Assembly (NCBI GenBank): GCA_964455485.1
Contig: CAYVXT010000034.1
Coordinates: 1 to 54,159, forward strand
DNA: 54,159 bases
Direction: 5' to 3'
DNA from: an uncultured Candidatus Saccharibacteria bacterium
Lineage (GTDB): Bacteria > Patescibacteriota > Minisyncoccia > Phycocordibacterales > WO2-35-19
Within the stretch, counting starts at the first letter, position 1. Each line of letters opens with the position of its first letter. Positions 2,280 through 46,477 of the stretch are shown piece after piece. Below the pieces are notes generated by a model. That model was not told where the DNA came from and did no database searches. It saw nothing but the letters and a program-made list of their open reading frames with translations. The position numbers and the translations under genes are program-made.

Positions 2280-2284
2280 TTAAA

Positions 2285-2848: not shown

Positions 2849-2915
2849 TTACTCTAATTAATCACAAGTTGTCTCGCCCAAATCCTATATTAGTATCTTT
2901 CGAATTGGAGCTTAT

Positions 2916-2951
2916 TTAGAATAATTAGTATAATTAAAATAATTAGAAATT
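2916..2951 (+). repeat. array of four contiguous 9-bp iterons (ttagaataa|ttagtataa|ttaaaataa|ttagaaatt)
   Basis: Read directly. The units abut with no spacer and the array ends 4 nt before the ATG at 2956. Unit 2 contains TATAAT. Related units gtagaataa|ttactctaa lie at 2840-2857 across the stop of the upstream gene. Confidence 0.8.
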
Positions 2952-2955
2952 TATT

Positions 2956-3381: not shown

Positions 3382-3409
3382 TAGCGAGCTTCTGGGTTAA
3401 AATGTTTTT

Positions 3410-4033
3410 ATGGCGAATAACGCAACTCAAGAATTTGTACCAATAGATGACATACGAGATGGTATCGTACTCCTTAAAGATGGGGGAATGCGTGGCATAC
3501 TTATGGCTTCGAGCATAAACTTTTCGTTGAAGTCTGACGATGAGAGGCAAGCAATACTTTTACAGTTTCAAGATTTTGTAAATTCACTTGATTTCCCAGT
3601 ACAAATAATAGCCCAATCAAGAAGGCTTGATATACGGCCTTATATTGCTCTACTAGAGGGTAGGTACAAAGAACAAACAAATGAACTTTTAAAAATTCAA
3701 ATAGAGCAGTATGTACAATTCGTAAAAAGCTTCACTGAATCTACTAACATAATGACAAAAAACTTTTTCATTATCGTCCCATATGATGCTGCAATAATCT
3801 CTAACAAGAAGAGTCTTATCCCAGGGTTTTCAAGCTCCAAACCAAATAAAGAGCAAGAGGAGGAAGATTTTGAGGAAAAAAGAAATCAGCTTGAACAAAG
3901 AATGGGTGTAGTAGAACAAGGACTTGTAAGGTGTGGTATTAGGGTTGCAAAACTTGGCACAGATGAAGTAGTAGAGTTATTTTATAAGATATTTAACCCG
4001 GGAGAAACGGAGAAACCAATTAAAATCAATTAA
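3410..4033 (+). CDS. hypothetical protein; resembles the N-terminal (non-ATPase) part of VirB4/TraC-type proteins
   Basis: 207-aa ORF between the PrgI-like gene and VirB4. The segment EFVPIDDIRDGIVLLKDGGMRGILMASSINFSLKSDDERQAILLQFQDFVNSL is organised like the N-terminus of the adjacent VirB4 (LRDILAPSALKVNTKELNLGEKVVRSFFVISYPRYL...). No Walker motifs. Confidence 0.55.
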   Translation: MANNATQEFVPIDDIRDGIVLLKDGGMRGILMASSINFSLKSDDERQAILLQFQDFVNSLDFPVQIIAQSRRLDIRPYIALLEGRYKEQTNELLKIQIEQYVQFVKSFTESTNIMTKNFFIIVPYDAAIISNKKSLIPGFSSSKPNKEQEEEDFEEKRNQLEQRMGVVEQGLVRCGIRVAKLGTDEVVELFYKIFNPGETEKPIKIN

Positions 4034-4056
4034 CCTAATTATTCTAATTAACCTAG
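4030..4056 (-). repeat. three contiguous 9-bp iterons in inverted orientation (minus strand reads ctaggttaa|ttagaataa|ttaggttaa)
   Basis: Plus strand reads ttaacctaa|ttattctaa|ttaacctag. Overlaps the TAA stop at 4031-4033. Separated by 19 nt from the plus-strand array at 4076. Confidence 0.75.
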
Positions 4057-4075
4057 AATAATAATTGATTCTGAC

Positions 4076-4111
4076 TTAGTATAATTAGAGCAATTAGGGT
4101 ACTTAGAATAA
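4076..4111 (+). repeat. array of four contiguous 9-bp iterons (ttagtataa|ttagagcaa|ttagggtac|ttagaataa)
   Basis: Read directly. Ends 10 nt before the ATG of VirB4 at 4122. Unit 1 contains TATAAT. Confidence 0.8.
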
Positions 4112-4121
4112 TTTTCAGAAC

Positions 4122-5927: not shown

Positions 5928-5930
5928 TTT

Positions 5931-6368
5931 ATGGAGGAAGAACCAATTAAACGAGAATTAGTTCGTACAGGTTATAGGCCCAGAATCGAAACCCCAAAAC
6001 CCCCAGAAAGAATAAAAGGTTGGGTAGCATCATGTATAACCATTTTTGCTTTATGTGTAGACGCAATTCAAGCCAAACTCACCGCCATAGCCATAGGAGT
6101 TGTATTGGGCCCTATAATCTCAGTTGGAGCTTATACTGCGGTCGGCATTACTTTTCTTTTATGTGGAGTTAGTTTGCTAGGAGACAGTAGAAAAATCTTA
6201 ACCTTGATAGGTACAGGCGCTGTAGAGGCCACATTTTCATTTATTCCCGGATTTACAGGTTGGGCAGTTATGATCATACTTCAAACTTGGGCTGAGGACG
6301 GTAAAGAGGGGTGGTTAGGTGAAATAGCATCAAAGGTAGGGGCATTTAAAAGCTTTGTGTCCAAGTAA
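5931..6368 (+). CDS. hypothetical polytopic membrane protein (T4SS-like cluster)
   Basis: Starts 3 nt after the virB4 stop. Has 3-4 hydrophobic helices (ITIFALCVDAIQAKLTAIAIGVVLGPIISVGAYTAVGITFLLCGVSLL). Confidence 0.6.
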   Translation: MEEEPIKRELVRTGYRPRIETPKPPERIKGWVASCITIFALCVDAIQAKLTAIAIGVVLGPIISVGAYTAVGITFLLCGVSLLGDSRKILTLIGTGAVEATFSFIPGFTGWAVMIILQTWAEDGKEGWLGEIASKVGAFKSFVSK

Positions 6369-6423
6369 TCAACTTTTAAAAAGTAAATCAAATATTTGCT
6401 GTGGTATTATTAATGTAAATACC

Positions 6424-7428
6424 ATGATTTCAAAAACTCTAAATTTATTAATAGTCGCTATCGTATTTACTGTTTTTTTACCTAATTTTACTTTTGCGCA
6501 GTATAATGCGAGCCTCCCTTATTCGGTATCAAATGAAGTAGATATAGCCGTAGTGCCAACTTATCCAAAGCCTGGCGATATAGTTTCAATCACACTAAGT
6601 TTGTATACAGAAGATTTGAATACTGCAAACATAAGTTGGTACAAGGATGGTAAATTAGAAAAATCTGGTAAAGGCGAGATGAGATTTTCGTTTACTGCTA
6701 ATAAAGCCGGGCAAGAAACGAAAATTAGTGTCAACATAAGTCTTGCAAACGGCCCAACATTTACAAAAAACTTTACGATTAACCCCACAGTTGTTGATTT
6801 GATATGGGAAGCAAACACTTACACTCCACCGTTTTATAAAGGTAAAGCCCTCCACTCTAAACAAGGGGTATTAAAAATAGTAGCTATACCAGAATTTATT
6901 AAAAACGGAAATATAATTCCTGCCCAAAACCTTGTTTACGAATGGACTCAAGGTGAAAGTGTCATTCAAAATCAGTCTGGATATGGGAAAAATACTCTAG
7001 TTGTTAATGGTTCTATTTTAGGAAAAAGTGAAGAAATTGGTGTCACTGTCACAGACCCAATAAATAATTTAGTTGGGGTTAGTTATTTAAATATTAGTCC
7101 ATCAAATCCTGAGATTGTTTTTTATGAAAACAATCCATATTATGGACACATATTTGATAGAGCTCTCGTTGGCTCACACACTCTAAGTGGGGAAGAGATG
7201 CAAGTTGTAGCTGCACCTTACTTTTTTAGCAAGGAAGCTTCGGGTAAAATTTCTTATAATTGGAGATTAAACGGAAAACTTGTAAACGAACTTAGCCAAT
7301 CAAGAACTGCGATCTTCCGAAAACCAGAAGGCAAGTCGGGTCAATCAAATATTCTTTTGGGTGTTGAAAACGCAAACAGAATACTGCAACAAGCAAATGG
7401 TGGCTTAACAATAAAATTTAGTAATTAA
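6424..7428 (+). CDS. hypothetical secreted protein (T4SS-like cluster)
   Basis: I prefer the internal ATG at 6424, giving MISKTLNLLIVAIVFTVFLPNFTFAQ, a clear signal peptide. The listed start at 6355 overlaps the previous gene. No motif recognised. Confidence 0.6.
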   Translation: MISKTLNLLIVAIVFTVFLPNFTFAQYNASLPYSVSNEVDIAVVPTYPKPGDIVSITLSLYTEDLNTANISWYKDGKLEKSGKGEMRFSFTANKAGQETKISVNISLANGPTFTKNFTINPTVVDLIWEANTYTPPFYKGKALHSKQGVLKIVAIPEFIKNGNIIPAQNLVYEWTQGESVIQNQSGYGKNTLVVNGSILGKSEEIGVTVTDPINNLVGVSYLNISPSNPEIVFYENNPYYGHIFDRALVGSHTLSGEEMQVVAAPYFFSKEASGKISYNWRLNGKLVNELSQSRTAIFRKPEGKSGQSNILLGVENANRILQQANGGLTIKFSN

Positions 7429-8199
7429 ATGAAGGGGTTAATAATTACATTTTTGATAATATTGTCAGTTGGTAGTTTTGCATTAAACACTCACGCACAA
7501 GATATTGAGTACACCTTACTCGCACCAATCCCTTGCGTAGGGAGTGGGGGAGAAAATCCAGATTGTAACACTGTATCTGAAACCACCACATTTCAAAAAT
7601 ATGTTCCTGGAGCCTTCTCTCTCCTTATTGGTCTTGCTGCTATAACAGCCATTGTAAGACTTGTGTGGGGAGGCTTTTTATATATCACCTCAGCAGCAAT
7701 AAACAGTAAAAATGAGGGGAGAGAGCTTATAAAAAATTCAATTTATGGTCTTGTTCTCGCCATCGGAGCAGCAGTTATTCTAAATACCATAAATCCAAAT
7801 TTACTTAATTTTAATTTAAATATTGAAAGTGTATCTATTGCTCCTATTGATGGGGGAAGTTTGAATTCCTCTGGACTACAAAGAGTTACTCAGTTGGCAT
7901 ACGATGATTTGAAAGCTAAGTGTACAGGATGCACAATTAGGGTTACTAGCACCACTGGTGGCACCCACACCCCAGGGTCAGATCATTATACAGGCCGTGC
8001 GATAGATTTTGGTGCAGATCAGAACCTTACAAAATTTATTACTGGTTCAACAAACAAACCTAATACTTGCGCCACAAAGGACTTAGTATTGGGCGGACAA
8101 GCTGTAACATTTCTTTGGGAACCATTGGGATCTAGGTGTAGTAGAAATCCATCAGCACCTGCTTCAAATGGTGACCATTGGCACATGTCGATCAAATAA
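7429..8199 (+). CDS. T4SS-pilin-like N-terminal module fused to a C-terminal LAS/M15-type zinc peptidase (putative peptidoglycan hydrolase)
   Basis: Signal peptide (ALNTHAQ), then YTLLAPIP...FQKYVPGAFSLLIGLAAITAIVRLVWGGFLYITS...IYGLVLAIGAAVILNTINPNLL, a two-helix hairpin typical of CPR T4SS pilin proteins. The C-terminus carries SDHYTGRAIDF (S-x-H-x-x-G-x-A-x-D) and GDHWH (H-x-H), the metal ligands of VanY/M15 peptidases. Confidence 0.6.
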   Translation: MKGLIITFLIILSVGSFALNTHAQDIEYTLLAPIPCVGSGGENPDCNTVSETTTFQKYVPGAFSLLIGLAAITAIVRLVWGGFLYITSAAINSKNEGRELIKNSIYGLVLAIGAAVILNTINPNLLNFNLNIESVSIAPIDGGSLNSSGLQRVTQLAYDDLKAKCTGCTIRVTSTTGGTHTPGSDHYTGRAIDFGADQNLTKFITGSTNKPNTCATKDLVLGGQAVTFLWEPLGSRCSRNPSAPASNGDHWHMSIK

Positions 8200-8203
8200 C
8201 AAT

Positions 8204-9451
8204 ATGAAAAAAACTCTTTTAATAATTGGAATATTGGTGGTAGTGGCAGTAGCAGCATATTTAATACTTCAACCTAAAAGTGGTAGCACACCAGATGGCG
8301 GGCAAGGTTTTTCAATTGCAAATTTTCTTCCTTTTGGGAGCAATGACGAGTTACCAACCACACAACCAACAAACACAAACCAAACCCAAAATAATGATCT
8401 AGAAAATATTTCAGGTGGTGAAATTATAAAGCTTCCAAACAGGTTGAGAAAAGTTTCTAGCGAACCAGTAGCAGGAGCGGTGGCTTTTAATGTTGGCTCA
8501 ACTACATATATAAGATTTGTAGAAAAGGGGACAGGAAATGTATATGAAGCAAGATCCGATTCTGATAAGGTGGAGCGTCTTACAAACACAACTATTCCAA
8601 AAATAATACGTGCTTTTTGGCTTCCAAATGGTAATGGTTTTTTAGCTCAAACCATAATACCTGAAACGGAAATGGTTGAAACAAATTTTGTAAAACTCAG
8701 CAAATCCACTTCAACTTCAACAGAAGTACTGACCCCTTACAACACCACCATTTCAAAACTACCAACCGATATAAAAGAACTATCTATAAAACCAGACGGT
8801 ACAAAAGTGTTTTATTATCAAATCACACAAACCGGTTCTGATTGGTTCATTTCAAATATTGACGGTACAAGTAGCACCAAGGTTTACAGCAGCAAATTAA
8901 TAGAGTGGGTCCCAAACTGGATATCGCCAAACTCTGTAATTATGCAGACCAAATCAAGTGCAGCAAGTCTTGGCTATGCTTACACTTTTGATTTGAACAC
9001 CAAAAACCTTAAAAAAGTGGTTGGTGGGGCAGTTGGTCTTTCAATAATCTCTACACCTAAACATCCTTCATATTTAATTTCTGTTGGTGGAGGCTTACCT
9101 ACATTAAATTATGTTGCGAAAGACGGTATTTCAACCAATCTAAGCAAAAATACATTGGCTGAAAAGTGTGTTTGGGGAAATAAAGATGTTAATTTTGTGT
9201 TCTGTGCCATCCCTCAAAACATACCGTCTAGTATATATCCTGACAGTTGGTATAAGGGGTTAACAAATACAGAAGATTCCATAATTAAAATAAATATTAC
9301 CGATAATATTTACTACCTTACATCTGACTTATCTCAGGAATCAAAACAAAAAATAGATGTGGTAGATCCTCAAATCTCTCCCGATGATTCACACCTTATA
9401 TTTAGAAATAAATTAGATGGTTATTTGTGGGTATTGAGAATTACAGAATAG
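8204..9451 (+). CDS. membrane-anchored protein, probable beta-propeller (TolB/PD40-like)
   Basis: I prefer the ATG at 8204 (MKKTLLIIGILVVVAVAAYLIL, an N-terminal anchor). Repeated strand-rich blocks and a C-terminal ISPDDSHLIFRNKLDGYLWVL resemble PD40 repeats. The fold call is tentative. Confidence 0.5.
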   Translation: MKKTLLIIGILVVVAVAAYLILQPKSGSTPDGGQGFSIANFLPFGSNDELPTTQPTNTNQTQNNDLENISGGEIIKLPNRLRKVSSEPVAGAVAFNVGSTTYIRFVEKGTGNVYEARSDSDKVERLTNTTIPKIIRAFWLPNGNGFLAQTIIPETEMVETNFVKLSKSTSTSTEVLTPYNTTISKLPTDIKELSIKPDGTKVFYYQITQTGSDWFISNIDGTSSTKVYSSKLIEWVPNWISPNSVIMQTKSSAASLGYAYTFDLNTKNLKKVVGGAVGLSIISTPKHPSYLISVGGGLPTLNYVAKDGISTNLSKNTLAEKCVWGNKDVNFVFCAIPQNIPSSIYPDSWYKGLTNTEDSIIKINITDNIYYLTSDLSQESKQKIDVVDPQISPDDSHLIFRNKLDGYLWVLRITE

Positions 9452-9487
9452 TTTGGTATAATTTTTAAGTTATTTTAAATTAATAAA

Positions 9488-11296
9488 ATGAAAAAATTTG
9501 TTATAGCTCTTGGTATATTATTTGTTTCTCCAGTATTTGTTTTTGCAACAACATCTGAATCAGTTAGTGTTGCCGAGCTTAAAGCTCAAATATCAAGTCT
9601 TTTAAAACTAGTGCAAGAGTTACAATCACAAATTGCATCTCAAAACTTAAGTGGTGGATCCTCAGGAGGTGTTTCGTGCCATACATTCAATAGAGATTTG
9701 GGAATAGGGGACAATGGCGACGAAGCGTCTTTTTTATTGACGGCTCTAGCACGAGACGGCGTTGCCACTCCTAGAAATACTAACTTTAGTCATATTTACG
9801 ACGAAACACTTGCTTCTTATGTAAGTGCCTTCCAAGAAAAATATAAGAGTGAAATTTTGACTCCAGCAGGATTATCTAACGGTACAGGATATTTTGGAGC
9901 TCGCACCAGAGCAAAATTGAACCAACTTTATGGATGCGGAAATTCTACACGATGTACAGATGTAACTGGAACCACCTGCACTTATACCGAAAATCCAAAT
10001 TGGTATCAACAAAGAGATGCGACAACCTGTCCTATAATTTCTCCTATGTCACCGAATTCTTGTATTGGTGGCACCATCATTACCACGGTTGGCGCCAATG
10101 GTTGTCTCGGATTGCCTAAGTGTGTAATGCCAACATCAACACAAACCACAGTTGCATGCACCATGGAAGCCAAAATATGTCCTGATGGTAAAACAGTTGT
10201 TAGTCGCACAGGGCCAAACTGCGAATTTACTGCATGCCCTACACAAATAACATCAAAAGTTACAATTTCTTCTCCGAACGGTGGGGAACAGTGGCAAAAT
10301 AGTTCAACTCAAACTATTAAATGGTCTGATCCGGCTGGATCTAATAATGGAACCTATACTGTATTTATAACAAGTGAGAATGGTAGCGCTTATGGAATAG
10401 CAGGGGAAGTATATGGTCAAAATTATCTAAACTGGACAGTTGGGCAGGTAAAACTAGGAGACCAACAGATCAATTTAAGTCCTAGTTCAAATTATTACGT
10501 TCAGGTTGTAAAACAATATACTGGTACAAACATCTACGATCAAAGCGACAGACCGTTCAGTATTGTTTCTACGTCACCATCTATAAGTGTTACTTCACCA
10601 AATGGGGGAGAGACTTATACAACAAATCTCTCAACTATTCGTATAAATTACAAATCAGCTAGTATTGTCGGCCAAACACTAACAGCATACCTCTATAGCC
10701 CAATCTGGAATAATGTACAGTCCCAAACAGTGTATGCCGATAATTTTGGTTATATTGACATGAATTTAACCAAAGCTGGTGGTCCAAATGCTGGACAGTA
10801 TAAAATAACTCTCTGTGCTAACAATGTTTCTAGTCCAGAAGTTTCTGGCAAACCTCTTTGCGACTCTAGCGACAATTACTTCAACATCATTTCTCAACAA
10901 ACAAACGGCACACTATCATTTTCGAAATCATCATTTTCAGCAACCTATACTCAAGGAGATGCACTTCCAGACAGTATAACTGGTTCTACAAATGTTTATA
11001 CTTCCACTCAATATCTTCAGAGCCTAGATATTACCAACACATCAAATGTAAATGTTATTTTTAAAATTAGCGTTCCCAATAAACCATCATGGCTTAATAC
11101 TAGCTATGCAACAGATTCATTGACGGTAGGTCCTGGACAAATTATGGGTCTAGGTGCATATCTTGACCCTACTACTGTAGCTAATACTCCTGGCACCTAT
11201 ACAACAAATATAATTCTTACTGGCAACTTTATGGGTTCACCCCTTTCAATTCCAGTAACATTAAAGGTGGTTTCGTCCAATACCAAGTCTTACTAG
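9488..11296 (+). CDS. secreted protein with a putative peptidoglycan-binding domain, a Cys-rich segment and Ig-like repeats
   Basis: Signal peptide and a coiled-coil. The block GDNGDEASFLLTALARDGV...ASYVSAFQEKY...GYFGARTRAKLNQLYG resembles PG_binding_1. Repeated SSPNGGEQW / TSPNGGETY module starts. Confidence 0.55.
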   Translation: MKKFVIALGILFVSPVFVFATTSESVSVAELKAQISSLLKLVQELQSQIASQNLSGGSSGGVSCHTFNRDLGIGDNGDEASFLLTALARDGVATPRNTNFSHIYDETLASYVSAFQEKYKSEILTPAGLSNGTGYFGARTRAKLNQLYGCGNSTRCTDVTGTTCTYTENPNWYQQRDATTCPIISPMSPNSCIGGTIITTVGANGCLGLPKCVMPTSTQTTVACTMEAKICPDGKTVVSRTGPNCEFTACPTQITSKVTISSPNGGEQWQNSSTQTIKWSDPAGSNNGTYTVFITSENGSAYGIAGEVYGQNYLNWTVGQVKLGDQQINLSPSSNYYVQVVKQYTGTNIYDQSDRPFSIVSTSPSISVTSPNGGETYTTNLSTIRINYKSASIVGQTLTAYLYSPIWNNVQSQTVYADNFGYIDMNLTKAGGPNAGQYKITLCANNVSSPEVSGKPLCDSSDNYFNIISQQTNGTLSFSKSSFSATYTQGDALPDSITGSTNVYTSTQYLQSLDITNTSNVNVIFKISVPNKPSWLNTSYATDSLTVGPGQIMGLGAYLDPTTVANTPGTYTTNIILTGNFMGSPLSIPVTLKVVSSNTKSY

Positions 11297-11302
11297 AGAA
11301 GG

Positions 11303-12001
11303 TTAAGAGATTTTTAACTGTCTCTTTATATAAAAATCTTGTGCAATACCGAAAAGGTTTGATACTAACCAATATAGAGCAACCACACCAGAAATTTGCC
11401 ACGATATTAAAAGCACCACGAGGGGCATAGTGAACTTCATTTGTTTAGCCATTATGGTTGAAAAGTCCTGATTGTTTGTATTTGGATCACTTTTTGGGGT
11501 AGAAAAGTGCATTTGTATATAAGCACTAACGGCAGCTAATATCGCTAAAATAATACTCTTTTCGGATATATCAATCCCAAAAAACATCATTGATATTGAA
11601 TTTGGAGCATCCACAAAACTATAAAGTAGGCTTTTATCTACAGAGGGTAAACCAGACCTGAAAAAAATATGGTAGAGCGAGTATATAATTGGTATTTGAA
11701 TCAGAATTGTAAATATACTTGAAAATGGGTTGATTTTGTTATCTCTGTAAAATTCCATCACTTTTACAGCTTGTTGTTCCTTATCTTTATACTTTTCTTT
11801 AATTGAATTTAGATCTCCTTGTTTTTCACGCATTATAAGTTGAGTAACAGCTGCTTTCTTTGCAAGAGGGTAGAGAATTATTTTAACTAAAAGAGTAAGT
11901 ATAATTGCTGCAAAACCCGCGTTAACCCAACCAAAATTCAATATAACTATAAGTATATTGTATAGGGGGGTATAAATTATTGTTTTAAAGAATGCGATCA
12001 T
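11303..12001 (-). CDS. yidC: YidC/Oxa1-family membrane insertase (short form)
   Basis: 232-aa multi-TM protein immediately downstream of rnpA and overlapping it by 17 nt, in the canonical rpmH-rnpA-yidC order. Confidence 0.8.
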   Translation of the reverse strand: MIAFFKTIIYTPLYNILIVILNFGWVNAGFAAIILTLLVKIILYPLAKKAAVTQLIMREKQGDLNSIKEKYKDKEQQAVKVMEFYRDNKINPFSSIFTILIQIPIIYSLYHIFFRSGLPSVDKSLLYSFVDAPNSISMMFFGIDISEKSIILAILAAVSAYIQMHFSTPKSDPNTNNQDFSTIMAKQMKFTMPLVVLLISWQISGVVALYWLVSNLFGIAQDFYIKRQLKIS

Positions 12002-12332
12002 GGTGTGTTATTAATTTTGCTTCAGAAAGAAGGTTATAAATTTCATCCTCAACTTCACTTATTTTTTTAGGCAAAGATTTGTATGAAAAACTAATGAGTT
12101 GGTTTGGAACTATTATATCTATAATTTTAGATATTGTTATATAACCTTGTCTCCTTGCTTTGTTCCTTTGATAGGCACTCTTTGCAACTTTTTTTGACAC
12201 AGAAAAAGAAAATCTGCTGTTTTTACCTTGATATTCAACATTCCTTACTAAAAAAAGCTTTCCTTTTAAGGTTTTTGACACCTTAAAAAGGGCATGCATA
12301 CCTCTTGGTATTCTTTTACTTTTTGGAAGCAT
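11985..12332 (-). CDS. rnpA: ribonuclease P protein component
   Basis: 115-aa basic protein (MLPKSKRIPRG..., KARRQ) located between rpmH and yidC. Confidence 0.8.
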   Translation of the reverse strand: MLPKSKRIPRGMHALFKVSKTLKGKLFLVRNVEYQGKNSRFSFSVSKKVAKSAYQRNKARRQGYITISKIIDIIVPNQLISFSYKSLPKKISEVEDEIYNLLSEAKLITHHDRIL

Positions 12333-12338
12333 TAGTAT

Positions 12339-12473
12339 TTAGACCGACAACTTTTTCCTTCCTTTCCTTCTTCTACTTTTGAGTACTTTTGATCCTGATG
12401 TTGATTTGCTCCTTTTTAAGAAGCCGTGTGAACTTGATCGTTTCTTCTTTTTTGGTTGGTAGGTAATTGACAT
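12339..12473 (-). CDS. rpmH: 50S ribosomal protein L34
   Basis: Not in the ORF track because it is only 44 aa. The minus strand translates to [44 protein letters not shown], matching the L34 pattern (TYQP...HGF...G.KVL..RR.KGRK.L.V). Confidence 0.9.
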
Positions 12474-12575
12474 TATGGTTAAAATTATCTTCTAAAAGCT
12501 GTAAACCACTTATTAACAAATTATAAACATATTTAGTCCTAAATACAAGTTCCTTTAATTTTTTTTAAATATATA

Positions 12576-13928
12576 ATGTCGGGTATGGAAACGCAGGAAC
12601 TTTGGAAAAACGTTATGACTAATATCGAGTCTTCGGTTTCTAAAGCAAATTTTGCGACATGGTTTAAAGAAACCAAGATAACTGGGTTTGAAAATGGGGT
12701 AGTCTACTTGAGTGTGCCTAACACTTTTGTTAAAGAGTGGCTCTTAAAAAAGTTCCACCAGATGATTTTGAAGTTTCTTAGAGAAACCTCGGACTCTATC
12801 CATGCTTTAGAATACGTTATAAAAGAAGAGATAAAGCCAAAAAATCAATTTATACCAACCAAAAACTCTTCACCTACAAGAGAGTTGCCTCTATCAGAAT
12901 ACTATGTAAATAAAGAGGACAACCTTAATCCGAGGTACACTTTTGAATCATTTATTGTTGGACCCTTCAATGAACTTGCATATGCCGCAGCACAAGCAGT
13001 AATAAAAAACTTAGGAGTAACTTATAATCCTTTGTTTGTATATGGAAATTCAGGTCACGGCAAAACTCACTTAATACAAGCAATAGGGAACGCAATAAAA
13101 GCTATAGACCCTAATAAAAAGATATTTTATTTTACATCTGAAAAATTTATAAATGATTATGTAAATTCCGTACAATCAAATAAAGTAAGTCAATTTAAAG
13201 AAAAGTATAGAAAATATGACTTAATAATCATGGATGATGTCCAATTCTTATCTGGAAAAGAAAAAACTCAGGAAGAGCTGTTCCATTTGTTTAATATAAT
13301 GAAGGATAGTAATAAGCATATTGTATTTTCTTGCGATAAACACCCAAATTTTGTTTCAGGTCTAGAAGATAGGTTAAAATCAAGGTTTTCGGCTGGTATG
13401 GTAGTTGATATACCCGCACCTGACCATGAATCTAGAGTAGCTATAATAAAGGCTAAATGTAATACAATAAGCCTTTTTATGGACCAAGATATTATAGATT
13501 ACCTAGCAGACTCTATAAGGGGAAATATTAGGGATATAGAAGGGGTTATAAACCTTGTTGTATGCCAAACCGAAACAAAAAACAGACCATTGAACCTAAA
13601 TGAGATAAAAGACTTGGTTAAAAATAGTATAAAACAAAAGAAACTCCTTTCATATAAAGAGGTTGTAAAAATAATTTCTGATTTTTACAAAATTGAAGAA
13701 GAATCTGTTTATGAAAAAACTAGAAGAAAGGAAATAATAAAACCTAGACAGATAATAATGTATATATTAAGAGAAGATTTTAGTATTTCTTATCCATCAA
13801 TAGGGGAAAAGTTAGGTGGTAGAGACCATACTACAGTTATCCACTCTTGTGAAAAGATTAAAAAGGAAATAAAAGAAAATTCTCTTTTATCAAAAGAAAT
13901 ACAAGAAATTCGGTCGATTATAGGTTGA
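12576..13928 (+). CDS. dnaA: chromosomal replication initiator DnaA
   Basis: Walker A GNSGHGKTHL, the DLIIMDDVQFL box, and a C-terminal DNA-binding region (IGEKLGGRDHTTVIHSCEKI). Divergent from rpmH and followed by dnaN. Confidence 0.95.
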   Translation: MSGMETQELWKNVMTNIESSVSKANFATWFKETKITGFENGVVYLSVPNTFVKEWLLKKFHQMILKFLRETSDSIHALEYVIKEEIKPKNQFIPTKNSSPTRELPLSEYYVNKEDNLNPRYTFESFIVGPFNELAYAAAQAVIKNLGVTYNPLFVYGNSGHGKTHLIQAIGNAIKAIDPNKKIFYFTSEKFINDYVNSVQSNKVSQFKEKYRKYDLIIMDDVQFLSGKEKTQEELFHLFNIMKDSNKHIVFSCDKHPNFVSGLEDRLKSRFSAGMVVDIPAPDHESRVAIIKAKCNTISLFMDQDIIDYLADSIRGNIRDIEGVINLVVCQTETKNRPLNLNEIKDLVKNSIKQKKLLSYKEVVKIISDFYKIEEESVYEKTRRKEIIKPRQIIMYILREDFSISYPSIGEKLGGRDHTTVIHSCEKIKKEIKENSLLSKEIQEIRSIIG

Positions 13929-14107
13929 TAGCATGTGGATTAACTGTTCCAAAACTGTAGTTCAAGTATTGATAAATTTAAGAAAAATTTTTTTTAAACA
14001 TTTAAACAACAGTGGTGTTGAAAACAATTTATAAAAATATGTTTATATTAAAGCTTAAAATAAGATATCCACAAATCCACAGTCTATATATCTAACTTTT
14101 TATTTAA
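13929..14107. promoter_or_regulatory. candidate oriC / DnaA-box region in the dnaA-dnaN spacer
   Basis: AT-rich 179-bp spacer with three near-consensus DnaA boxes sharing ATCCACA: TGTGGATTA (13934-13942, reverse orientation), ATATCCACA (14065-14073) and AAATCCACA (14073-14081). Consensus is TTATCCACA. Confidence 0.5.
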
Positions 14108-15205
14108 ATGAAAATTGAATTTGAAAAAAGAATAGTAGATGATGCAATTCAAAAAGTATCAAAAATTGTAGGTAAACACTTAACTTTACCGGTACTCTCT
14201 TGTATCCTTTTAGAAACCTCAAATTCCGGAGTTGTAGTTAAATCAACTAATCTAGATATAGGTATAGAAATCAATATTGAAGCAAAAGTTATTGAACAAG
14301 GAATAATTGCTGTTCCAGCCCAAATTTTAGCTAATACAGTATCATCTATTAAAGATGAAAAAATTATATTTGAAGAGAAAGATGGAAATTTAATAATTAC
14401 AACAAAGAATAATTCTGCTGTAATAAAATGTATGCAGCATGAGGACTTTCCAAGTATTCCAAAAATATCTAAAGATAATACCATCAGTATTAGTTCTAAA
14501 GATTTAGTTCAAGGTTTTAAATCTGTTTGGTATAGTGCTTCCATTTCAACAATAAAACCAGAATTAGGGAGTGTGTATATAACTAATTCTGATGTTGGTT
14601 TGGTGTTTGTAGCAACAGACTCTTTTAGATTGGCAGAAAAAAAGGTTCAAACTAAAACAAGGTATGATTTTCCTAATACTTTAATACCATTTAAAAATGT
14701 AGCTGAAATTATAAAGCTTATTGATGGTGTGGCCGATGAAATAAATATTAATTTCGAAAAGAACCAAGCCTCATTTTATACAAATAGTTTTTATATTGTA
14801 TCAAGATTGGTTGACGGCTCTTTTCCTGATTATGCCCAACTTATTCCAAAAAACTACAGCGCGACAGTAACGCTTCTAAAAAATGATCTTATAAATGCTA
14901 TAAAAGTATCTAATATATTTTCAGATACATTAAACCAAGTTAAATTTAAAGTTTCTATTGCAGAAAAATCTATTATTATAGAATCAAAAAATGGTGAAAT
15001 TGGGGAATATAAAGAAAAAATTAATGCTTCAGTTGTTGGTGATGATTTAGAAATTAATTTTAATAGTAAGTATATTATTGATTGTATGCAATCAATAGTT
15101 TCTGAAAGTATAACCCTAGGTTTTGGCGGTATAGGAAGACCTCTTGTTATTACAGGAGTTTCCGACAAAAGCTTTACTTATCTTGTAATGCCAATGAAAA
15201 GATAG
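14108..15205 (+). CDS. dnaN: DNA polymerase III beta sliding clamp
   Basis: 365 aa directly after dnaA. Three-domain clamp pattern (ATDSFRLAEKK, RLVDGSFPDY, LVMPMK C-terminus). Confidence 0.9.
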   Translation: MKIEFEKRIVDDAIQKVSKIVGKHLTLPVLSCILLETSNSGVVVKSTNLDIGIEINIEAKVIEQGIIAVPAQILANTVSSIKDEKIIFEEKDGNLIITTKNNSAVIKCMQHEDFPSIPKISKDNTISISSKDLVQGFKSVWYSASISTIKPELGSVYITNSDVGLVFVATDSFRLAEKKVQTKTRYDFPNTLIPFKNVAEIIKLIDGVADEININFEKNQASFYTNSFYIVSRLVDGSFPDYAQLIPKNYSATVTLLKNDLINAIKVSNIFSDTLNQVKFKVSIAEKSIIIESKNGEIGEYKEKINASVVGDDLEINFNSKYIIDCMQSIVSESITLGFGGIGRPLVITGVSDKSFTYLVMPMKR

Positions 15206-17666: not shown

Positions 17667-18893
17667 ATGTTTGGCCTAAAAAAGAAAGAAGTAATAATAG
17701 ACAATGTAAAAATAGATGAAATTTTAGAGAGAGGAATTGAGAATATTTTTCCGAACAAGGAATTCTTAAAATCTAAATTAATGAAGGGTGAACGTATATC
17801 TATCTATCTTGGTATTGATCCAACTGGGCCAACACTTCATTTAGGGCACGTCATACCACTCATAAAGTTGGGTCAACTCCAAGAGTTGGGACACCAAATA
17901 ATACTCCTTATGGGAGATTTCACTGCAACAATAGGTGACCCTACAGGTAAAGATGCCGTAAGAAAGCAGCTTACACACGAAGAAGTAATGAATAATTTGA
18001 AGGAGTACAAAAATCAGGCGTCAAAATTCATTTCATTTAATGGAAGTAATCCAGCTATTTTCAAATTCAATTCTGAGTGGTTAAAAAGAATGGATTTTAC
18101 TGATATTTTAAAACTCACATCCCTTATGACTGTGGATCAAATGATGAAGCGTGATATGTTTGTAAGACGTTCAGAAGAGGGAAGACCTATACACATACAC
18201 GAGTTCTTATATCCCTTAATGCAAGGTTTCGATTCAGTTGCCATGGATGTTGATGGGGAGATCGGCGGAAATGATCAAACATTCAATATGTTGGTTGGGA
18301 GGGATTTGTTAAAAACCTTAAAAAGTAAAGATAAATTTGTAATTGCTACAAAACTTTTGGTTGATTCGAATGGAAAGAAAATGGGAAAAACAGAAGGAAA
18401 TATGGTTTCTTTAGACCAGAACCCAGAAGAAATGTTTGGTAGAGTAATGAGTTGGGGAGACGGTCTCTTACTAAATGCATTTGAATTAGTTACAAAGATG
18501 CCCATAAACGAGATCAAGACTATAAAAGAAAAGTTGGAAAATGGTGAAAATCCAAAAGATATAAAAGTAATACTAGCATCAGAAATAGTGAAGATGTATT
18601 ACGGAGAAAAGGAAGCGGGTGAGGCGGCAAAAAAATTTGAAACAACTTTTAGTAAGGGTGAATTTCCAGAAGACGCCCCAGTATTTGAAGCCCCAAAAGA
18701 AGAATTTTTATATGAAATCATATTAAAGAATGATTTAGTTTCATCTAAATCAGAATGGAGAAGGTTGGTTGAGGCTGGTGCTGTGTCAGGCTACCCAGAT
18801 ATAAAAATTCATGATCCAAACCATAAAATAGGGGAAAGTGAAATGAAATTAAAGATAGGTAAAAAAGTATTTGTTATTATAAAACCCAAATAA
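17667..18893 (+). CDS. tyrS: tyrosine--tRNA ligase
   Basis: GIDPTGPTLHLGH (HIGH), GDFTATIGDPTGK, KMGKT (KMSKS-like), and a C-terminal S4-like domain. Confidence 0.85.
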   Translation: MFGLKKKEVIIDNVKIDEILERGIENIFPNKEFLKSKLMKGERISIYLGIDPTGPTLHLGHVIPLIKLGQLQELGHQIILLMGDFTATIGDPTGKDAVRKQLTHEEVMNNLKEYKNQASKFISFNGSNPAIFKFNSEWLKRMDFTDILKLTSLMTVDQMMKRDMFVRRSEEGRPIHIHEFLYPLMQGFDSVAMDVDGEIGGNDQTFNMLVGRDLLKTLKSKDKFVIATKLLVDSNGKKMGKTEGNMVSLDQNPEEMFGRVMSWGDGLLLNAFELVTKMPINEIKTIKEKLENGENPKDIKVILASEIVKMYYGEKEAGEAAKKFETTFSKGEFPEDAPVFEAPKEEFLYEIILKNDLVSSKSEWRRLVEAGAVSGYPDIKIHDPNHKIGESEMKLKIGKKVFVIIKPK

Positions 18894-18896
18894 AAC

Positions 18897-18921
18897 AAAA
18901 ACTCGGTGTTACCGAGTTTTT
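18897..18921. terminator. bidirectional rho-independent terminator
   Basis: aaaaactcggt-gtt-accgagttttt forms an 11-bp stem with A/T runs on both sides. It lies between the convergent tyrS and the acidic ORF. Confidence 0.75.
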
Positions 18922-18930
18922 GTTTGAAAA

Positions 18931-23487: not shown

Positions 23488-24102
23488 ATGAACATTCAGA
23501 TTCAGAAAGTCGCGGTCATTTTGATCGCTTTCATGTTTTTTTTCGGGTGTGCAACCCGGAAGATCCAGGTGGTGCACGTGCCAGTTGCACCCGGAATGTC
23601 AAAAGAAGAGGTAAAAGCGGCTGAGCAGTCTGCCATCCGGTTGGTGGAAGATCGCGAGAGGCAGGCCCGGTATCGGGCGAACTTGCAGCTTAGGTGCCCA
23701 AATCCAGCAGACGAACAAAATGTTCGTATTCACCCCATTGCGGGCGATACGGGTGTTTTGCGCTCACGGCAGTATATAAAGGTGTTGACGACAAACACCA
23801 GCCCGTACCCAGTGAGAATTGATTTGCCCGGTATGGGCACATACGTGGAAAACCTCACTTTTGGGTGCACAATTAATCTTGTGCGTCGCCTCGATGTTTA
23901 CAGGTATGGTGATGAAAATTACCTCACCTTTTTCTTTGAGGTGACTGCGTATAACAAAGAAGGGCAGATATATAAAGACAGGAGCGAAACATTCAACCTG
24001 AGTGCCTTTGGAGGAAATTCTTCCAGAGGCGCAAGTTGGATAATAAAGATCAGCCCCCTCGATATGGGTACGAGGAGGGTTGAGGAGAATCGGCGTTACT
24101 GA
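23488..24102 (+). CDS. hypothetical lipoprotein of visibly foreign (GC-rich) composition
   Basis: Signal peptide with lipobox (AFMFFFGC). The coding sequence is clearly richer in G+C than all neighbours. Strong SD and a GC-rich terminator. No family recognised. Confidence 0.7.
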   Translation: MNIQIQKVAVILIAFMFFFGCATRKIQVVHVPVAPGMSKEEVKAAEQSAIRLVEDRERQARYRANLQLRCPNPADEQNVRIHPIAGDTGVLRSRQYIKVLTTNTSPYPVRIDLPGMGTYVENLTFGCTINLVRRLDVYRYGDENYLTFFFEVTAYNKEGQIYKDRSETFNLSAFGGNSSRGASWIIKISPLDMGTRRVEENRRY

Positions 24103-24116
24103 TTCTCGAAATATTC

Positions 24117-24157
24117 AATCCCGCCGAGGCGCAGTGAGTGCCTCTCGGCGGGATTTT
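24117..24157 (+). terminator. GC-rich rho-independent terminator
   Basis: aatcccgccgag (24117-24128) pairs with ctcggcgggatt (24144-24155), a 12-bp stem followed by TTTTGTTTG. Confidence 0.8.
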
Positions 24158-24230: not shown

Positions 24231-24710
24231 ATGGAATTTTTGGCCAAAAATGAAGAAGAAACTGCTAAGTTGGCACATGATTTTGCTATAAAATTAGGGC
24301 CTAATGACGAGTCAGCTCAAGTGGTTGGACTTTACGGTGAGCTCGGGGCTGGCAAAACTACTTTTATGAAATATTTAGCTAAAAGTTTAGGGGTTAAAGA
24401 AACAATTCAAAGCCCTACATTTGTGATAATGAAAAAGTATGAGTTGAAAAGCGCAAGTAAAAAGGCGCAAGTTAAAGACACTTTTAAACTTGCGCCTTTT
24501 TACTTTCAAACTCTCATTCATATCGATGCGTATAGAATCGAGAACGATAACGAAATGATTAATTTGGGGTGGGAGGAAATTATAAACGATCCAAAAAACT
24601 TAGTTTTTGTTGAGTGGCCAGAGAGAATCGCTGGTGTTATGCCAAAACACACGAAAATATCTTTCAATCATATAAATGAAAACGAAAGAAATATAAAAAT
24701 AGAATCATGA
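24231..24710 (+). CDS. tsaE: tRNA threonylcarbamoyladenosine biosynthesis protein TsaE, with an internal repeat-encoded insert
   Basis: GELGAGKTTF P-loop, SPTFVIMKKY, LIHIDAYR, and VEWPE. About 17-20 extra residues (ELKSASKKAQVKDTFKLAPFYFQT) lie between the SPTF and H.D.YR motifs. Confidence 0.85.
   Translation: MEFLAKNEEETAKLAHDFAIKLGPNDESAQVVGLYGELGAGKTTFMKYLAKSLGVKETIQSPTFVIMKKYELKSASKKAQVKDTFKLAPFYFQTLIHIDAYRIENDNEMINLGWEEIINDPKNLVFVEWPERIAGVMPKHTKISFNHINENERNIKIES
24441..24513. repeat. palindromic element inserted in-frame within tsaE
   Basis: aagtaaaaaggcgcaagtt (24455-24473) and aacttgcgcctttttactt (24487-24505) form a perfect 19-bp inverted repeat around a 13-nt loop. The outer arms gagttgaaaag / ctttcaaactc are partly complementary. 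Confidence 0.8.
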
Positions 24711-27606: not shown

Positions 27607-27679
27607 CCGCCCGTAGCTCAGTCGGTAGAGCAGCTCCCTTTTAAGGAGAGGGTCGTAGGTTCGATTCCTACCGGGCGGA
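27607..27679 (+). tRNA. tRNA-Lys (anticodon UUU)
   Basis: Cloverleaf by hand: acceptor CCGCCCG/CGGGCGG (an unusual C1-G72), D arm GCTC-AGTCGGTA-GAGC, anticodon loop CTTTTAA, T arm GTAGG-TTCGATT-CCTAC, discriminator A. CCA is not encoded. Confidence 0.9.
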
Positions 27680-27849
27680 CAGTGTTCAAAAATGTGCTTT
27701 TTTATTTTGAGTAATGGGTCATTCTTGGTTTAGGTAACGAAATTTTACTATAAATGAGGAGTAAAATAGCATGAAATATGTAAAACTACGATATAAACCT
27801 AGGTAAGTTGAGGGAGGAAAAAAGGAAATCAACACACCCGTTAAATTTT

Positions 27850-28692
27850 ATGAAATCTTTTTTTAAATTGATAAACAGTATTCATTGTTTTGACTATAAA
27901 AAACTTTTGGACAAGATAAAAGGAAAAGTTTTTGAATATAGTTTTAACCAAACATATTTTTTTTGGTTGTTATTTTGTTTAGTTTTTGGTTTTTGTATCT
28001 CAACAATAATTATAAGACCTTTTGCAACCAACAAACTCGATCTCGGATTTTATAACGGTGTTTCTCAAAAATATGTCTTTGAGAAAGAAGATCAGGGTCA
28101 ATTAGGTCTAATACTAAGTGAAGCCCTAGGCGCAACACTTAATTTAAGTTGGTACAATGTATGCTTTTATAATAAAAGCTTTATAACAGAACAAGGAAAA
28201 CTTACTAACGGTTCTGTTATTTTGGAGATTGATATATTTCCGCTCAATACCAATAGGTCAATGATTGAACTACAAAAAGGTTTAAATATTCCTTTTTCAA
28301 ATAATGGTGACATGGAATCAGTATCTATGATGATTTTGGGAAAGAGAATTGCGGCTTCAAGTAATCATGGTGGTTGTATACAAATTAAAGATTCTGAGGG
28401 AGGTATCGAGTACCGATTATCAATGTTAGAAAAAACTAAGGATAGATATGGTACAGATATTATTGTCCCAGTTTCTATTATGAGTATTAGTAAAGATCAA
28501 CCGTATCCATTAGAAACAGGTCCTATCTCAGAGTCAAAGCTTTTAAATCTTGGAGCTACAGAACTATTTATAGAAAATAATTCATATGCTTTTTGGGTTA
28601 AAAAAGTAGTTGTGATTTTTATTATTTTTGGTTTAATCGAATCTCTCAGAAAGATTTTTAATTTACTTTTTCCTAAGAAGCTATCTAAATAA
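27850..28692 (+). CDS. hypothetical membrane protein (TM helices at both ends)
   Basis: AT-rich ORF. The start is either the ATG at 27850 or the TTG at 27808. No motif recognised. Confidence 0.5.
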   Translation: MKSFFKLINSIHCFDYKKLLDKIKGKVFEYSFNQTYFFWLLFCLVFGFCISTIIIRPFATNKLDLGFYNGVSQKYVFEKEDQGQLGLILSEALGATLNLSWYNVCFYNKSFITEQGKLTNGSVILEIDIFPLNTNRSMIELQKGLNIPFSNNGDMESVSMMILGKRIAASSNHGGCIQIKDSEGGIEYRLSMLEKTKDRYGTDIIVPVSIMSISKDQPYPLETGPISESKLLNLGATELFIENNSYAFWVKKVVVIFIIFGLIESLRKIFNLLFPKKLSK

Positions 28693-28709
28693 ATTTACCT
28701 AAACTTTTT

Positions 28710-28737
28710 AACTTGCGCCCTTGTAACTTTCAAACTT
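28710..28737 (+). repeat. partial copy of the tsaE palindromic element
   Basis: aacttgcgcccttgtaactttcaaactt closely resembles the tsaE 3' arm aacttgcgcctttttactttcaaactc. It overlaps the DoxX stop codon. Confidence 0.65.
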
Positions 28738-29140: not shown

Positions 29141-29144
29141 ATTG

Positions 29145-29210
29145 GTTTGAAAGTTGAAAGTTATCAAGTTTGAAAGTTTGTCTCAAACTTGCACCTTTCT
29201 AACTTTTAAC
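29145..29210. repeat. rearranged copy of the same element family upstream of DoxX and the TrmH-family gene
   Basis: gtttgaaagtt occurs twice (29145-29155 and 29168-29178), the reverse complement of the aactttcaaac arm. It is followed by aaacttgcacctttctaacttttaac (29185-29210). A local hairpin forms from aagtttg-tct-caaactt. Confidence 0.6.
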
Positions 29211-29226
29211 TATATTATCACTTAAT

Positions 29227-30735: not shown

Positions 30736-31659
30736 TTAGTATTTTATTTGATGTACTTTGCAAAAGTGGGTGCTTCTACCTTTAACTACAATCCTTTCTA
30801 TTATACCGGAGCATCTAGGTTTTGGACATCTTTCGTTTTTTCTACCATAAACTTTATGGAAGTCTTGAAAGCCACCTTTTTCCCCGTGTATATTTCTATA
30901 ATCTGATTTTGAATCGCCTCCATGTTTTATTGAAAATAACAATATTTCTCTCATTGCAGCAAACATGTCCTTAAATTTCTTGTCCGGAATTTTTGTGGGG
31001 AAGGATAGTGGATGAACTCCAGATAGCCACAGCATTTCGTCTGAATAAATGTTGCCTATGCCAGCTAAACCCGTTTGATCAAGTAAGGCAGATTTTATTG
31101 GCATTGTTTTTCTTTTCCTAAGTATCTCAATAAATTTAGCGGGGGATAATGTTGGTGCTAAAGGGTCGATGCCCAAAGTGCCAACGTTTTCGTGTTCGTG
31201 CAGAAGTTTGGTTTTGATTATAGTTATTGATGCAAACTTTCTCATGTCGGAAAGTACCAGTTGTTTGCCGTCAGAAAGACTAAGCACAAAGTGTATGTAT
31301 TGATTGTACGGATCCTGTAAAGGCCCTTCTTCCATCGCTTTCCAACTTGCACCTTTCAAACTTTTTAACTTCTCGTACTTCCCGTACATCAAATGCCCTG
31401 TCATTTTCATGTGGATTATGATGGTGTAGTCGTTTTTTAGATTTATTAAAATATTTTTTCCTCTTCTTTCTGTATCAATTATTTTTTGTCCCTCAACTAA
31501 TTGTTTAAAGTTTTCAAAATATTTTTTGTTTTTTAATGTTTGCCGGTGGGGAACACTGGTACTCAAATGAAAATCTGACCACGCTTCTTTTATGGTTTTT
31601 CCCACTGCTACTCTTTTTACACCCTCTACTGTTGTGTGTACTTCAGGAAGTTCTGGCAT
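30736..31659 (-). CDS. mutM: formamidopyrimidine-DNA glycosylase (Fpg/MutM)
   Basis: MPELPEV N-terminus and an H2TH region (LLDQTGLAGIGNIYSDEMLW). C-terminal Cys-containing region (CPKPRCSG...HFC). Confidence 0.9.
   Translation of the reverse strand: MPELPEVHTTVEGVKRVAVGKTIKEAWSDFHLSTSVPHRQTLKNKKYFENFKQLVEGQKIIDTERRGKNILINLKNDYTIIIHMKMTGHLMYGKYEKLKSLKGASWKAMEEGPLQDPYNQYIHFVLSLSDGKQLVLSDMRKFASITIIKTKLLHEHENVGTLGIDPLAPTLSPAKFIEILRKRKTMPIKSALLDQTGLAGIGNIYSDEMLWLSGVHPLSFPTKIPDKKFKDMFAAMREILLFSIKHGGDSKSDYRNIHGEKGGFQDFHKVYGRKNERCPKPRCSGIIERIVVKGRSTHFCKVHQIKY
31344..31371 (+). repeat. partial copy of the palindromic element family inside mutM coding sequence
   Basis: aacttgcacctttcaaactttttaactt. 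On the coding (minus) strand it encodes KLKSLKGASWK, within a segment that is longer than in E. coli Fpg. Confidence 0.55.
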
Positions 31660-34097: not shown

Positions 34098-34104
34098 ATA
34101 AATC

Positions 34105-34128
34105 AAAAAATCCCTCACGGGATTTTTT
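34105..34128. terminator. bidirectional rho-independent terminator
   Basis: aaaaaatccc-tcac-gggatttttt forms a 10-bp stem between the convergent rpsT and yhhQ. Confidence 0.75.
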
Positions 34129-34147
34129 GATTGGAGATTTTGCTAAA

Positions 34148-42528: not shown

Positions 42529-42549
42529 TAAACTGTCCACATGAAGTAA

Positions 42550-42578
42550 CACAAAACCGCCGTTATGGCGGTTTTGTG
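42550..42578 (+). terminator. stem-loop terminator
   Basis: cacaaaaccgcc-gttat-ggcggttttgtg forms a 12-bp stem. It is followed by tgatataat, a likely -10 for pilM. Confidence 0.65.
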
Positions 42579-42593
42579 TGATATAATTTTTCT

Positions 42594-46395: not shown

Positions 46396-46477
46396 TTGGT
46401 ACCCCCAATAAAACATAAATCATTTATTAATAAAGTCAATGAATTGAAAAATGGCCCAAAAATGATATATTTTGTGT

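Follow-up and report, generated by a model that had tools for sequence, protein, structure and literature searches.

Rickettsia palindromic elements (RPEs; Ogata et al. 2000, 2002) are repeated palindromes which, in the account given in PMC10969869, sit in frame in housekeeping genes and are translated with them, and the same account counts 44 RPE integrations in genes of R. conorii. We analysed a 54,159-nt contig (CAYVXT010000034.1, deposited as an uncultured Candidatus Saccharibacteria bacterium, and called the window below, at its full length) from a bacterium of the Candidate Phyla Radiation (CPR), in which the essential tRNA-modification gene tsaE carries a palindromic segment that behaves in a similar manner. 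[quoted passage not shown] The novelty lies in the group of hosts, in the shortness of the element and, most of all, in the finding that palindromes of unrelated sequence occupy one loop of one essential gene time and again; taken alone, the window element is a curiosity of modest interest, whereas the hotspot is unexpected.

The likeness to RPEs, as far as that account describes them, lies in an in-frame, stop-free palindrome in a conserved open-reading frame (ORF), placed where the fold can accommodate it, with intergenic copies and with orthologues that lack it. The differences are those of size (RPEs measure ~100–150 bp, against a net insert of 45 nt and a whole palindrome of 73 nt, two to three times shorter), of copy number (the 44 copies in R. 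conorii genes against two to three relatives of the tsaE element in 54 kb) and of distribution, as RPE insertions are spread over many genes whereas here unrelated palindromes revisit one loop of one gene. The host phylum also differs from that of the RPEs and no sequence relation is expected. Judged by length and host phylum, membership in the Rickettsia RPE families proper is unlikely, and the likeness is one of behaviour.

Other small hairpin elements offer partial parallels. Fungal mitochondrial protein and rRNA genes contain GC-rich palindromic clusters and double-hairpin elements. Like the tsaE insert, these are small and tolerated inside genes, sometimes in frame, and they are mobile; unlike it, they belong to organelle genomes and to other sequence families, and some are bypassed or spliced rather than translated. 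Repetitive extragenic palindromic (REP) sequences, bacterial interspersed mosaic elements (BIMEs) and MITEs (Correia, ERIC, BOX, SPRITE) are likewise short dispersed hairpin repeats, often terminator-like and often decayed to partial copies (PMC10969869). REP sequences are, however, extragenic by definition and dependent on REP-associated tyrosine transposases (RAYTs), whereas the tsaE copy is intragenic, few copies are seen, and none of the 47 window ORFs of at least 90 aa that we scanned against Pfam carries a Y1_Tnp domain. A MITE is accompanied by target-site duplications and by a parent insertion sequence; for the window element, inspection by eye showed no such duplication and the scan of the window ORFs gave no such parent. 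The tsaE segment as a whole is an inverted repeat, and by eye no direct repeat flanks it. It is exceptional for REP and MITE families to reside in frame within an essential gene. Finally, template-switch mutations, in the cases treated in PMC8794818, PMC8604942 and PMC5941160, act in coding sequence and account for arms without mismatches, for matched double changes and for changes of several nucleotides that increase complementarity; as a mutational process, template switching predicts locally derived arms and leaves related copies elsewhere unexplained.

The palindrome in tsaE

The ORF at 24231–24710 encodes a complete TsaE, matching Pfam PF02367 with E 3e-33 over profile positions 2–127 of 128 and keeping all TsaE motifs (Walker A, S61-P-T63, H97/D99/Y101/R102 and E128-W129). 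It lies ~10 kb from dnaA, and polA starts 9 nt 3′ of it. Within it AAGTAAAAAGGCGCAAGTT and AACTTGCGCCTTTTTACTT are complementary at 19 of 19 nt with a spacing of 13 nt, with weaker outer pairing out to 24441–24513 (Table 1), making this the longest hairpin-type repeat of the window; the arm itself has no second occurrence there at up to three mismatches (0.03 expected). The predicted RNA fold of 24435–24520 reaches −32 kcal/mol (z = −7.1), and none of 200 shuffled sequences was as stable. Translated in frame, 24441–24512 gives ELKSASKKAQVKDTFKLAPFYFQT, which is free of stops. The perfect repeat, with its coordinates, and the undisturbed reading frame had both been noted in the preliminary description, and the complementarity check and the translation bear them out. 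An assembly artefact was rejected as an explanation, the insert being in frame and its arms short, with homologous inserts present in independent assemblies.

Comparison with orthologues indicates that the segment is a true addition. We took the 120 best TsaE homologues (52–69% identity), some of them named as Parcubacteria near Ca. Zambryskibacteria, and could parse the stretch from SPTFx to HxDxYR in 116. It measures 31 aa in the window, 16 aa in 31 of the 116 (typically IEKIYELENKPFQHLI), 17 aa in a further 11 and 20–41 aa in 72. Solved TsaE structures are shorter still, HMMER leaving a 16-residue gap against 9zw5, while in the T. maritima protein 3 residues separate the two HMMER-matched stretches. 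Closer comparisons use related loci, which carry L-numbers (12 from an exact protein look-up and 80 from a metagenome scan, the latter without a 100% match and without the window contig itself). The partner of the window in a PolA tree (L170, bootstrap 83) has an empty tsaE site with flanking codons nearly identical to those of the window and no KLAP-like sequence. Against this site, K73–Y91 (57 nt) replace four residues, a net gain of 45 nt or 15 aa, with boundaries uncertain by a few codons. As aligned, the window segment is an extra, in-frame, hairpin-forming stretch without counterpart in empty-site orthologues; the alignment of orthologues, which the preliminary description had proposed as a check on the insertion, supports it with 31 aa in the window against 16 aa at empty sites.

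The position of the insert was examined in an AlphaFold2 model built from an alignment of 60 homologues, which has a mean predicted local distance difference test score (pLDDT) of 85 and matches the solved TsaE/YjeE structures 1htw, 5np9 and 6n9a in Foldseek with template modelling (TM) scores of 0.75–0.78. Residues 72–93 are modelled without regular secondary structure between strands 67–71 and 94–99, and pLDDT falls below 50 at residues 76–86, the rest of the fold being confident. The SPTF and HxDxYR motifs are the loops called Switch I and Switch II in TsaE (PMC6614819), and in the model the insert lengthens the turn of the beta-hairpin which joins them. A surface loop, the placement that the preliminary description had asked a structure model to check, thus appears as a low-confidence loop between two strands, and the hairpin tip would be solvent-exposed in the TsaBDE complex.

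Inserts at the same loop in related lineages

Gene order is largely conserved in the longer related loci (pilB, hypothetical gene, tsaE, polA, holA … DoxX, SpoU … fpg), and at the same tsaE position we found at least seven unrelated types of insert peptide, spread over the 72 of 116 orthologues with 20 aa or more there. Distinct inserts of at least 22 aa mostly fold, 16 of 26 with z < −2 (median −3.1), as against 2 of 34 sites of up to 17 aa (median 0.0). Perfect stems of at least 11 bp, counted with flanks of up to 20 kb per locus, came to 6 over the ~5 kb of tsaE sites; elsewhere, 657 kb of ORF sequence yielded 27 and 91 kb outside ORFs yielded 75. This gives the tsaE loop an intergenic-like hairpin density, ~28 times that of other coding sequence. 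Examples include perfect arms of 29 bp in L126, a double hairpin of −59 kcal/mol in L124 and a perfect palindrome of 25 bp in the distant L191. The PolA tree (neighbour-joining, 28 taxa, 781 columns, 100 bootstraps), which is only partly resolved, pairs filled with empty tsaE sites in window/L170 (83), L128/L148 (100) and L140/L151 (95), so that gain, loss or both must be frequent. A neighbour-joining tree of TsaE alone was tried for a clade test of insert types and set aside as star-like and unresolved, the PolA tree being used instead. Taken together, the alignments and folds mark this loop as a hotspot at which palindromes of many unrelated kinds recur. The insert of L129 (10214–10285) is of another make: some five AATCCAG heptamers in tandem precede inverted repeats of the CTGGATT type, and the whole encodes IQNPESRIQNP…IPDSRFQ; its appearance suggests slippage combined with inversion more than the import of an element.

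One of the insert types is a GC-rich element. Its ends, ACCTCACCCC and GGGGTGAGGT, are inverted terminal sequences on either side of hairpins of the kind CCCCTCTCC-N6/7-GGAGAGGGG, an architecture which recalls that of MITEs. The element occurs in tsaE of L124, L128, L160, L165, L172, L188 and L154, apparently in frame in polA of L167 (6468–6585) and L148 (11345–11370), and at several intergenic places in relatives (Table 1). In tsaE it is translated in two different frames, which suggests more than one event. Two inverted copies in L124 flank a DUF559/MTES_1575 (Vsr-like endonuclease) gene, and in L124 and L128 a copy lies directly upstream of another DUF559 gene, hence it may be a MITE-like family linked to DUF559 endonuclease genes. 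The window contains no copy of the element, and no DUF559 gene was found among its scanned ORFs. A different hairpin, with 13-bp stems such as AAAGGCGGCCTTC..GAAGGCCGCCTTT, is found in L154 (2587–2629), L161 (1935–1977) and L165 (4983–5025, where the stem sequence differs), ~1–2 kb downstream of tsaE and apparently within polA.

Inserts homologous codon by codon with that of the window, which we call family A, are present in L003, L211, L210, L002/L130, L001 and L212, loci which are scattered in the PolA tree, where the deep nodes are poorly supported. Most of their palindromes have decayed, the arms having been kept to different degrees. L212, whose PolA is 64% identical to that of the window, retains the left arm only, including a 19-nt stretch identical to GCAAGTAAAAAGGCGCAAG of the window (24452–24470, a 3-nt offset from the perfect arm). 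The right-arm region of the window shares 32 of 36 nt with L211, and two of the differences (TTA AAC to TTT TAC) both add pairing with the conserved left arm. L003 differs from the window by a matched double change: there AAGACGCAAG pairs with CTTGCGTCTT, and the partner is displaced by two codons. Among identical residues, codon identity is 44–51% outside the insert and reaches 8/9 (window and L003) and 7/9 (window and L002) in the left arm and 8/10 (window and L211) in the right, which indicates that the arms are more conserved in DNA than the remainder of the gene. The peptide LK[SGD][AV]SK[KN]AQ is kept across the family-A proteins. A perfect 19-bp repeat over ~12 synonymous positions at this divergence is therefore no passive relic, and the comparison points to one of three situations: the window copy is young, or its arms have been homogenised one against the other, or their pairing is selected.

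Selection for pairing would make the hairpin useful in itself, in tsaE mRNA or DNA, and kept or replaced in many lineages regardless of its sequence. It could, for instance, terminate or attenuate transcription within the gene, or act on RNA processing or stability, and set tsaE against polA expression. The architecture recalls that of a bidirectional terminator, an A-tract and a GC-rich stem (GGCGCAAGTT/AACTTGCGCC) followed by TTTTTACTTT, and resembles the A-tract/stem/T-tract hairpins in intergenic positions of the window (compare 18893–18925, 34101–34132 and 42549–42579), the tsaE copy being in mid-ORF. The recurrence of unrelated hairpin sequences at one position, the matched double change between the window and L003, arm conservation above that of synonymous sites elsewhere and the closeness of the polA start all accord with such a role. 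However, ~38% of orthologues are free of any insert, pairing or a whole arm has been lost in L001, L130 and L212 within family A itself, and in the GC-rich inserts the stem is not followed by a T-run. In L212 the left arm is conserved without a partner, so pairing is not what conserves the arm there. A scan with the intrinsic-terminator consensus made no call at the tsaE palindrome, an Rfam scan of the window returned five tRNAs only and no family at 24441–24513, and a terminator within an essential ORF would be expected on general grounds to be masked by ribosomes or to be harmful. We regard a selected hairpin as improbable.

Less probable again, in our estimate, is an ordinary lineage-specific loop selected for its peptide, with the palindrome as a relic of the loop's origin. 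The conserved family-A peptide would fit such a loop, as would the inserts' being always in frame with all TsaE motifs kept. At this divergence a perfect 19-bp repeat would nonetheless not last without recency, homogenisation or selection for pairing, the loop is predicted to be disordered, and the position accommodates seven unrelated peptide types alongside many empty sites.

The hotspot also admits a broader reading, which we put forward tentatively and think rather doubtful, namely that throughout Parcubacteria hairpin DNA lands at the tip of the switch hairpin of tsaE, a site which would be either targeted or self-renewing. Unrelated palindromes, among them the MITE-like GC-rich family which flanks DUF559 (Vsr-like) genes, would repeatedly enter this one loop, be translated, lose arms and excise. 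If true, it would imply either an undescribed site- or structure-specific mobilisation or selection for a hairpin in an essential gene, and RPE-type ‘selfish DNA in proteins’ would be general in CPR genomes.

Copies outside tsaE and the origin of the insert

A search of the window with the 73-nt segment led to three other sites, which the preliminary description had likewise reported as related sequences. Site a, a solo right-arm copy without a hairpin, is intergenic, with the stop of a hypothetical gene on one side and the DoxX stop codon, which it abuts, on the other. Site b, in the divergent DoxX/SpoU spacer, is an imperfect palindrome (−21.6 kcal/mol, z −4.3) whose right arm (29180–29211) is like the tsaE right arm and whose left arm consists of degenerate GTTTGAAA-like repeats; this spacer is 86 nt long in the window as against 18 nt in L001, L124, L126 and L212. 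In a gapped local alignment which permits a 1-nt indel, evaluated with 2000 dinucleotide shuffles and 1541 window tiles, sites a and b scored 46 and 47, where shuffle maxima were 31–32 and the next-best tile reached 28. On these scores we accept sites a and b as real relatives of the tsaE element. The core 10-mer AACTTGCRCC occurs six times in the window (0.17 expected), for a pattern picked after the sites were seen.

The third site, a weak half-site match in fpg which encodes ..KLKSLKGASWK.., was rejected as an insertion of the element, being ungapped in the Fpg of L002 and showing an indel of only 3–4 aa against L126 and L128; by this comparison it is probably native sequence or a very old remnant. 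Two of the three sites reported earlier thus stand, and the fpg site probably does not. The half-site motif is found at the orthologous fpg place in the window (31338–31369) and in L130 (17083–17108), both of which carry family-A tsaE inserts, and the Fpg segment concerned varies in length, L125 lacking 22 residues and L126 and L128 3–4. The degenerate half-site AACTTGCRCCN{4,7}ACTTTYAA gave at least 120 single matches in unrelated taxa of the species-genome collection, which on inspection were chance. The half-site was also considered as a promoter (TTGCRC-N17-TAtAtT upstream of SpoU and DoxX); a consensus scan did not list the sites, promoter-like counts were 30 against 26.4 in shuffles, and a promoter at site b is only remotely conceivable. 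Next to site a, the space between a tRNA gene (27607–27679) and DoxX holds a 294-aa ORF without a Pfam match (27808–28692, + strand), which is missing from the syntenic loci L001 and L002 and is bounded by site a on its 3′ side.

On balance, with a little more confidence than doubt, we take the tsaE segment to be a palindromic insert similar to an RPE, belonging to a low-copy family and tolerated at a hotspot for insertions. A short hairpin-forming element of the lineage-specific, low-copy repeat family A would have come to lie in frame at the tip of the TsaE beta-hairpin, where it would be kept as selfish or neutral DNA and translated into 15 extra residues, tolerated since the tip is a loop distant from both switch motifs, which contact ATP and TsaD. 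At this loop, palindromes of at least seven unrelated types would have been gained, cut to single arms and lost in the Parcubacteria clade. The perfect 19-bp arms would mark a young copy, or one re-homogenised by intramolecular template switching, which probably keeps or restores perfect arms. The comparison with RPEs made in the preliminary description holds as far as behaviour goes (extra, in frame, in a loop, with related copies), whereas the mobile insertion mechanism, like neutrality and the homogenisation of arms, is what we infer.

Several observations weigh against this reading. Only two to three relatives of the tsaE element are present in 54 kb, no family-A copy beyond tsaE and fpg was found in ~75 kb of loci with a family-A tsaE insert, and an arm profile run over 954 kb of related loci likewise gave none beyond these two genes. 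Ungapped BLAST against windows simulated with a third-order Markov model gave p ~0.065 for site a, a test superseded by the gapped alignment because the latter allows the 1-nt indel. No target-site duplication was seen by eye, in the absence of a formal search, at tsaE, site a or site b, and the scanned window ORFs contain no transposase catalytic domain and no Y1/RAYT domain. The family-A inserts of other lineages stand at the same codons, so that a single old event fits as well as repeated targeting, and those of L001 and L130 have no fold (z +0.7 to +0.8). L127, which has the length of an empty site, reads FKLAPSAFQT there, its DNA being 78% identical to the window right arm. Finally, the reading does not account for the preference for this one loop.

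The L127 sequence leads to an origin which would require no mobile element, in which short-range template switching (quasi-palindrome mutagenesis) made and perfected the palindrome in situ. One arm would be native tsaE loop sequence and the other an inverted copy written beside it, and the loop would be a mutational hotspot since small inverted repeats seed further switching, slippage and deletion. L127 encodes its FKLAPSAFQT from AAGCTTGCGCC..TTTCAAACTC, in agreement with the window right arm, and from this likeness the right arm might be native. Both window-specific right-arm changes relative to L211 create pairing, the matched double change of L003 (AAGACGCAAG / CTTGCGTCTT) is of the kind expected, a local tandem duplication (AAAAGCGCAAGT / AAAAAGGCGCAAGT) lies inside the left arm, and the L129 insert is built of inverted runs of a 7-nt repeat. 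Documented effects of template switching, in the examples of PMC8794818 and PMC8604942, include the formation and upkeep of hairpins and changes to coding sequence. The argument for a native right arm is weakened, however, by the empty site of L170 without KLAP-like sequence, by the left-arm-only insert of L212 and by solo arms outside genes, as at site a, so that L127 can be a one-arm remnant. A purely local process also leaves unexplained sites a and b, intergenic and 4–5 kb off, with ~30 nt in common with the tsaE right arm, as well as the GC-rich inserts in related loci, which clearly stem from dispersed elements; and arms conserved above the rest of the gene are unexpected for neutral local sequence. 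We consider an origin wholly in situ unlikely, if well worth keeping in view.

Table 1 Positions of the palindrome, its host gene and related sequences (window coordinates unless an L-number is given)
Feature	Position	Strand	Basis or remark
tsaE coding sequence, host of the insert	24231-24710	+	159 aa; Pfam PF02367 TsaE
Full palindromic segment, 73 nt (outer imperfect arms, inner perfect arms and loop)	24441-24513	+	RNA fold
Stretch differing from the empty site of L170	24447-24503	+	Codons aligned to those of L170, L127 and the relatives with family-A inserts
Left arm of the perfect 19-bp inverted repeat, A-tract then GGCGCAAGTT	24455-24473	+	Sequence AAGTAAAAAGGCGCAAGTT
13-nt loop AAAGACACTTTTA	24474-24486	+	Partly self-pairing; 3-nt apical loop in predicted fold
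Right arm of the perfect inverted repeat, AACTTGCGCC then TTTTTACTT, terminator-like architecture	24487-24505	+	Sequence AACTTGCGCCTTTTTACTT
Site a, solo right-arm copy ACTTTTTAACTTGCGCCCTTGTAACTTTCAAACT	28703-28736	+	Gapped score 46; no hairpin
Site b, imperfect palindromic copy in DoxX/SpoU divergent spacer	29143-29212	.	Gapped score 47
Site c, weak half-site match in fpg (encodes ..KLKSLKGASWK..)	31338-31369	+ (fpg on -)	Arm profile (hidden Markov model) E 1e-3
GC-rich element copies in relatives	L124:399-452, 877-932, 5818-5860; L128:5797-5840; L125:8700-8776; L131:1114-1196		

Wider bearing and neighbouring features

RPE behaviour, if it extends to CPR/Parcubacteria and to elements that are much shorter, would show that selfish hairpins inside essential proteins are tolerated, and perhaps recruited, by the tiny genomes of an unrelated phylum. 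The hotspot is a natural experiment on the birth, perfecting, halving and loss of palindromes, in which dozens of lineages differ at one codon-defined site, and it sets transposition apart from template switching in a way which can be tested with public data. There are practical consequences as well: the inserts inflate apparent protein divergence and yield spurious motifs such as “TSPSPCEGEG”, and they can disrupt assemblies and lead astray phylogenies of CPR marker genes that rely on alignments.

The tsaE copy and sites a–c all fall inside 7.3 kb of the window. Upstream of tsaE lies a 204-aa ORF (23488–24102, + strand) without a Pfam match and with a higher G+C content of ~42%, followed by a strong terminator hairpin at 24117–24155. 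A 138-aa protein at 46000–46416 (− strand) has helix-turn-helix domains only (HTH_23, HTH_32, HTH_28), typical of the N-terminal part of IS630/IS481-type transposases, and no catalytic domain; it may represent what is left of a transposase, or else a regulator. Beside it, 46472–49996 (+ strand) encodes a class I tRNA synthetase of 1174 aa, with domains of the isoleucyl type, in which a His_Phos_1 domain (residues 517–681) is inserted in the catalytic tRNA-synt_1 domain, matched in two stretches, an unusual domain insertion. At the other end of the window, a block resembling a type IV secretion system (39–11296, + strand; PrgI family, TraG/VirB4-type P-loop ATPase, type IV secretion system pilin) lies amid large proteins without Pfam matches and adjoins yidC-rnpA / dnaA-dnaN (11303–15205), a likely replication origin.

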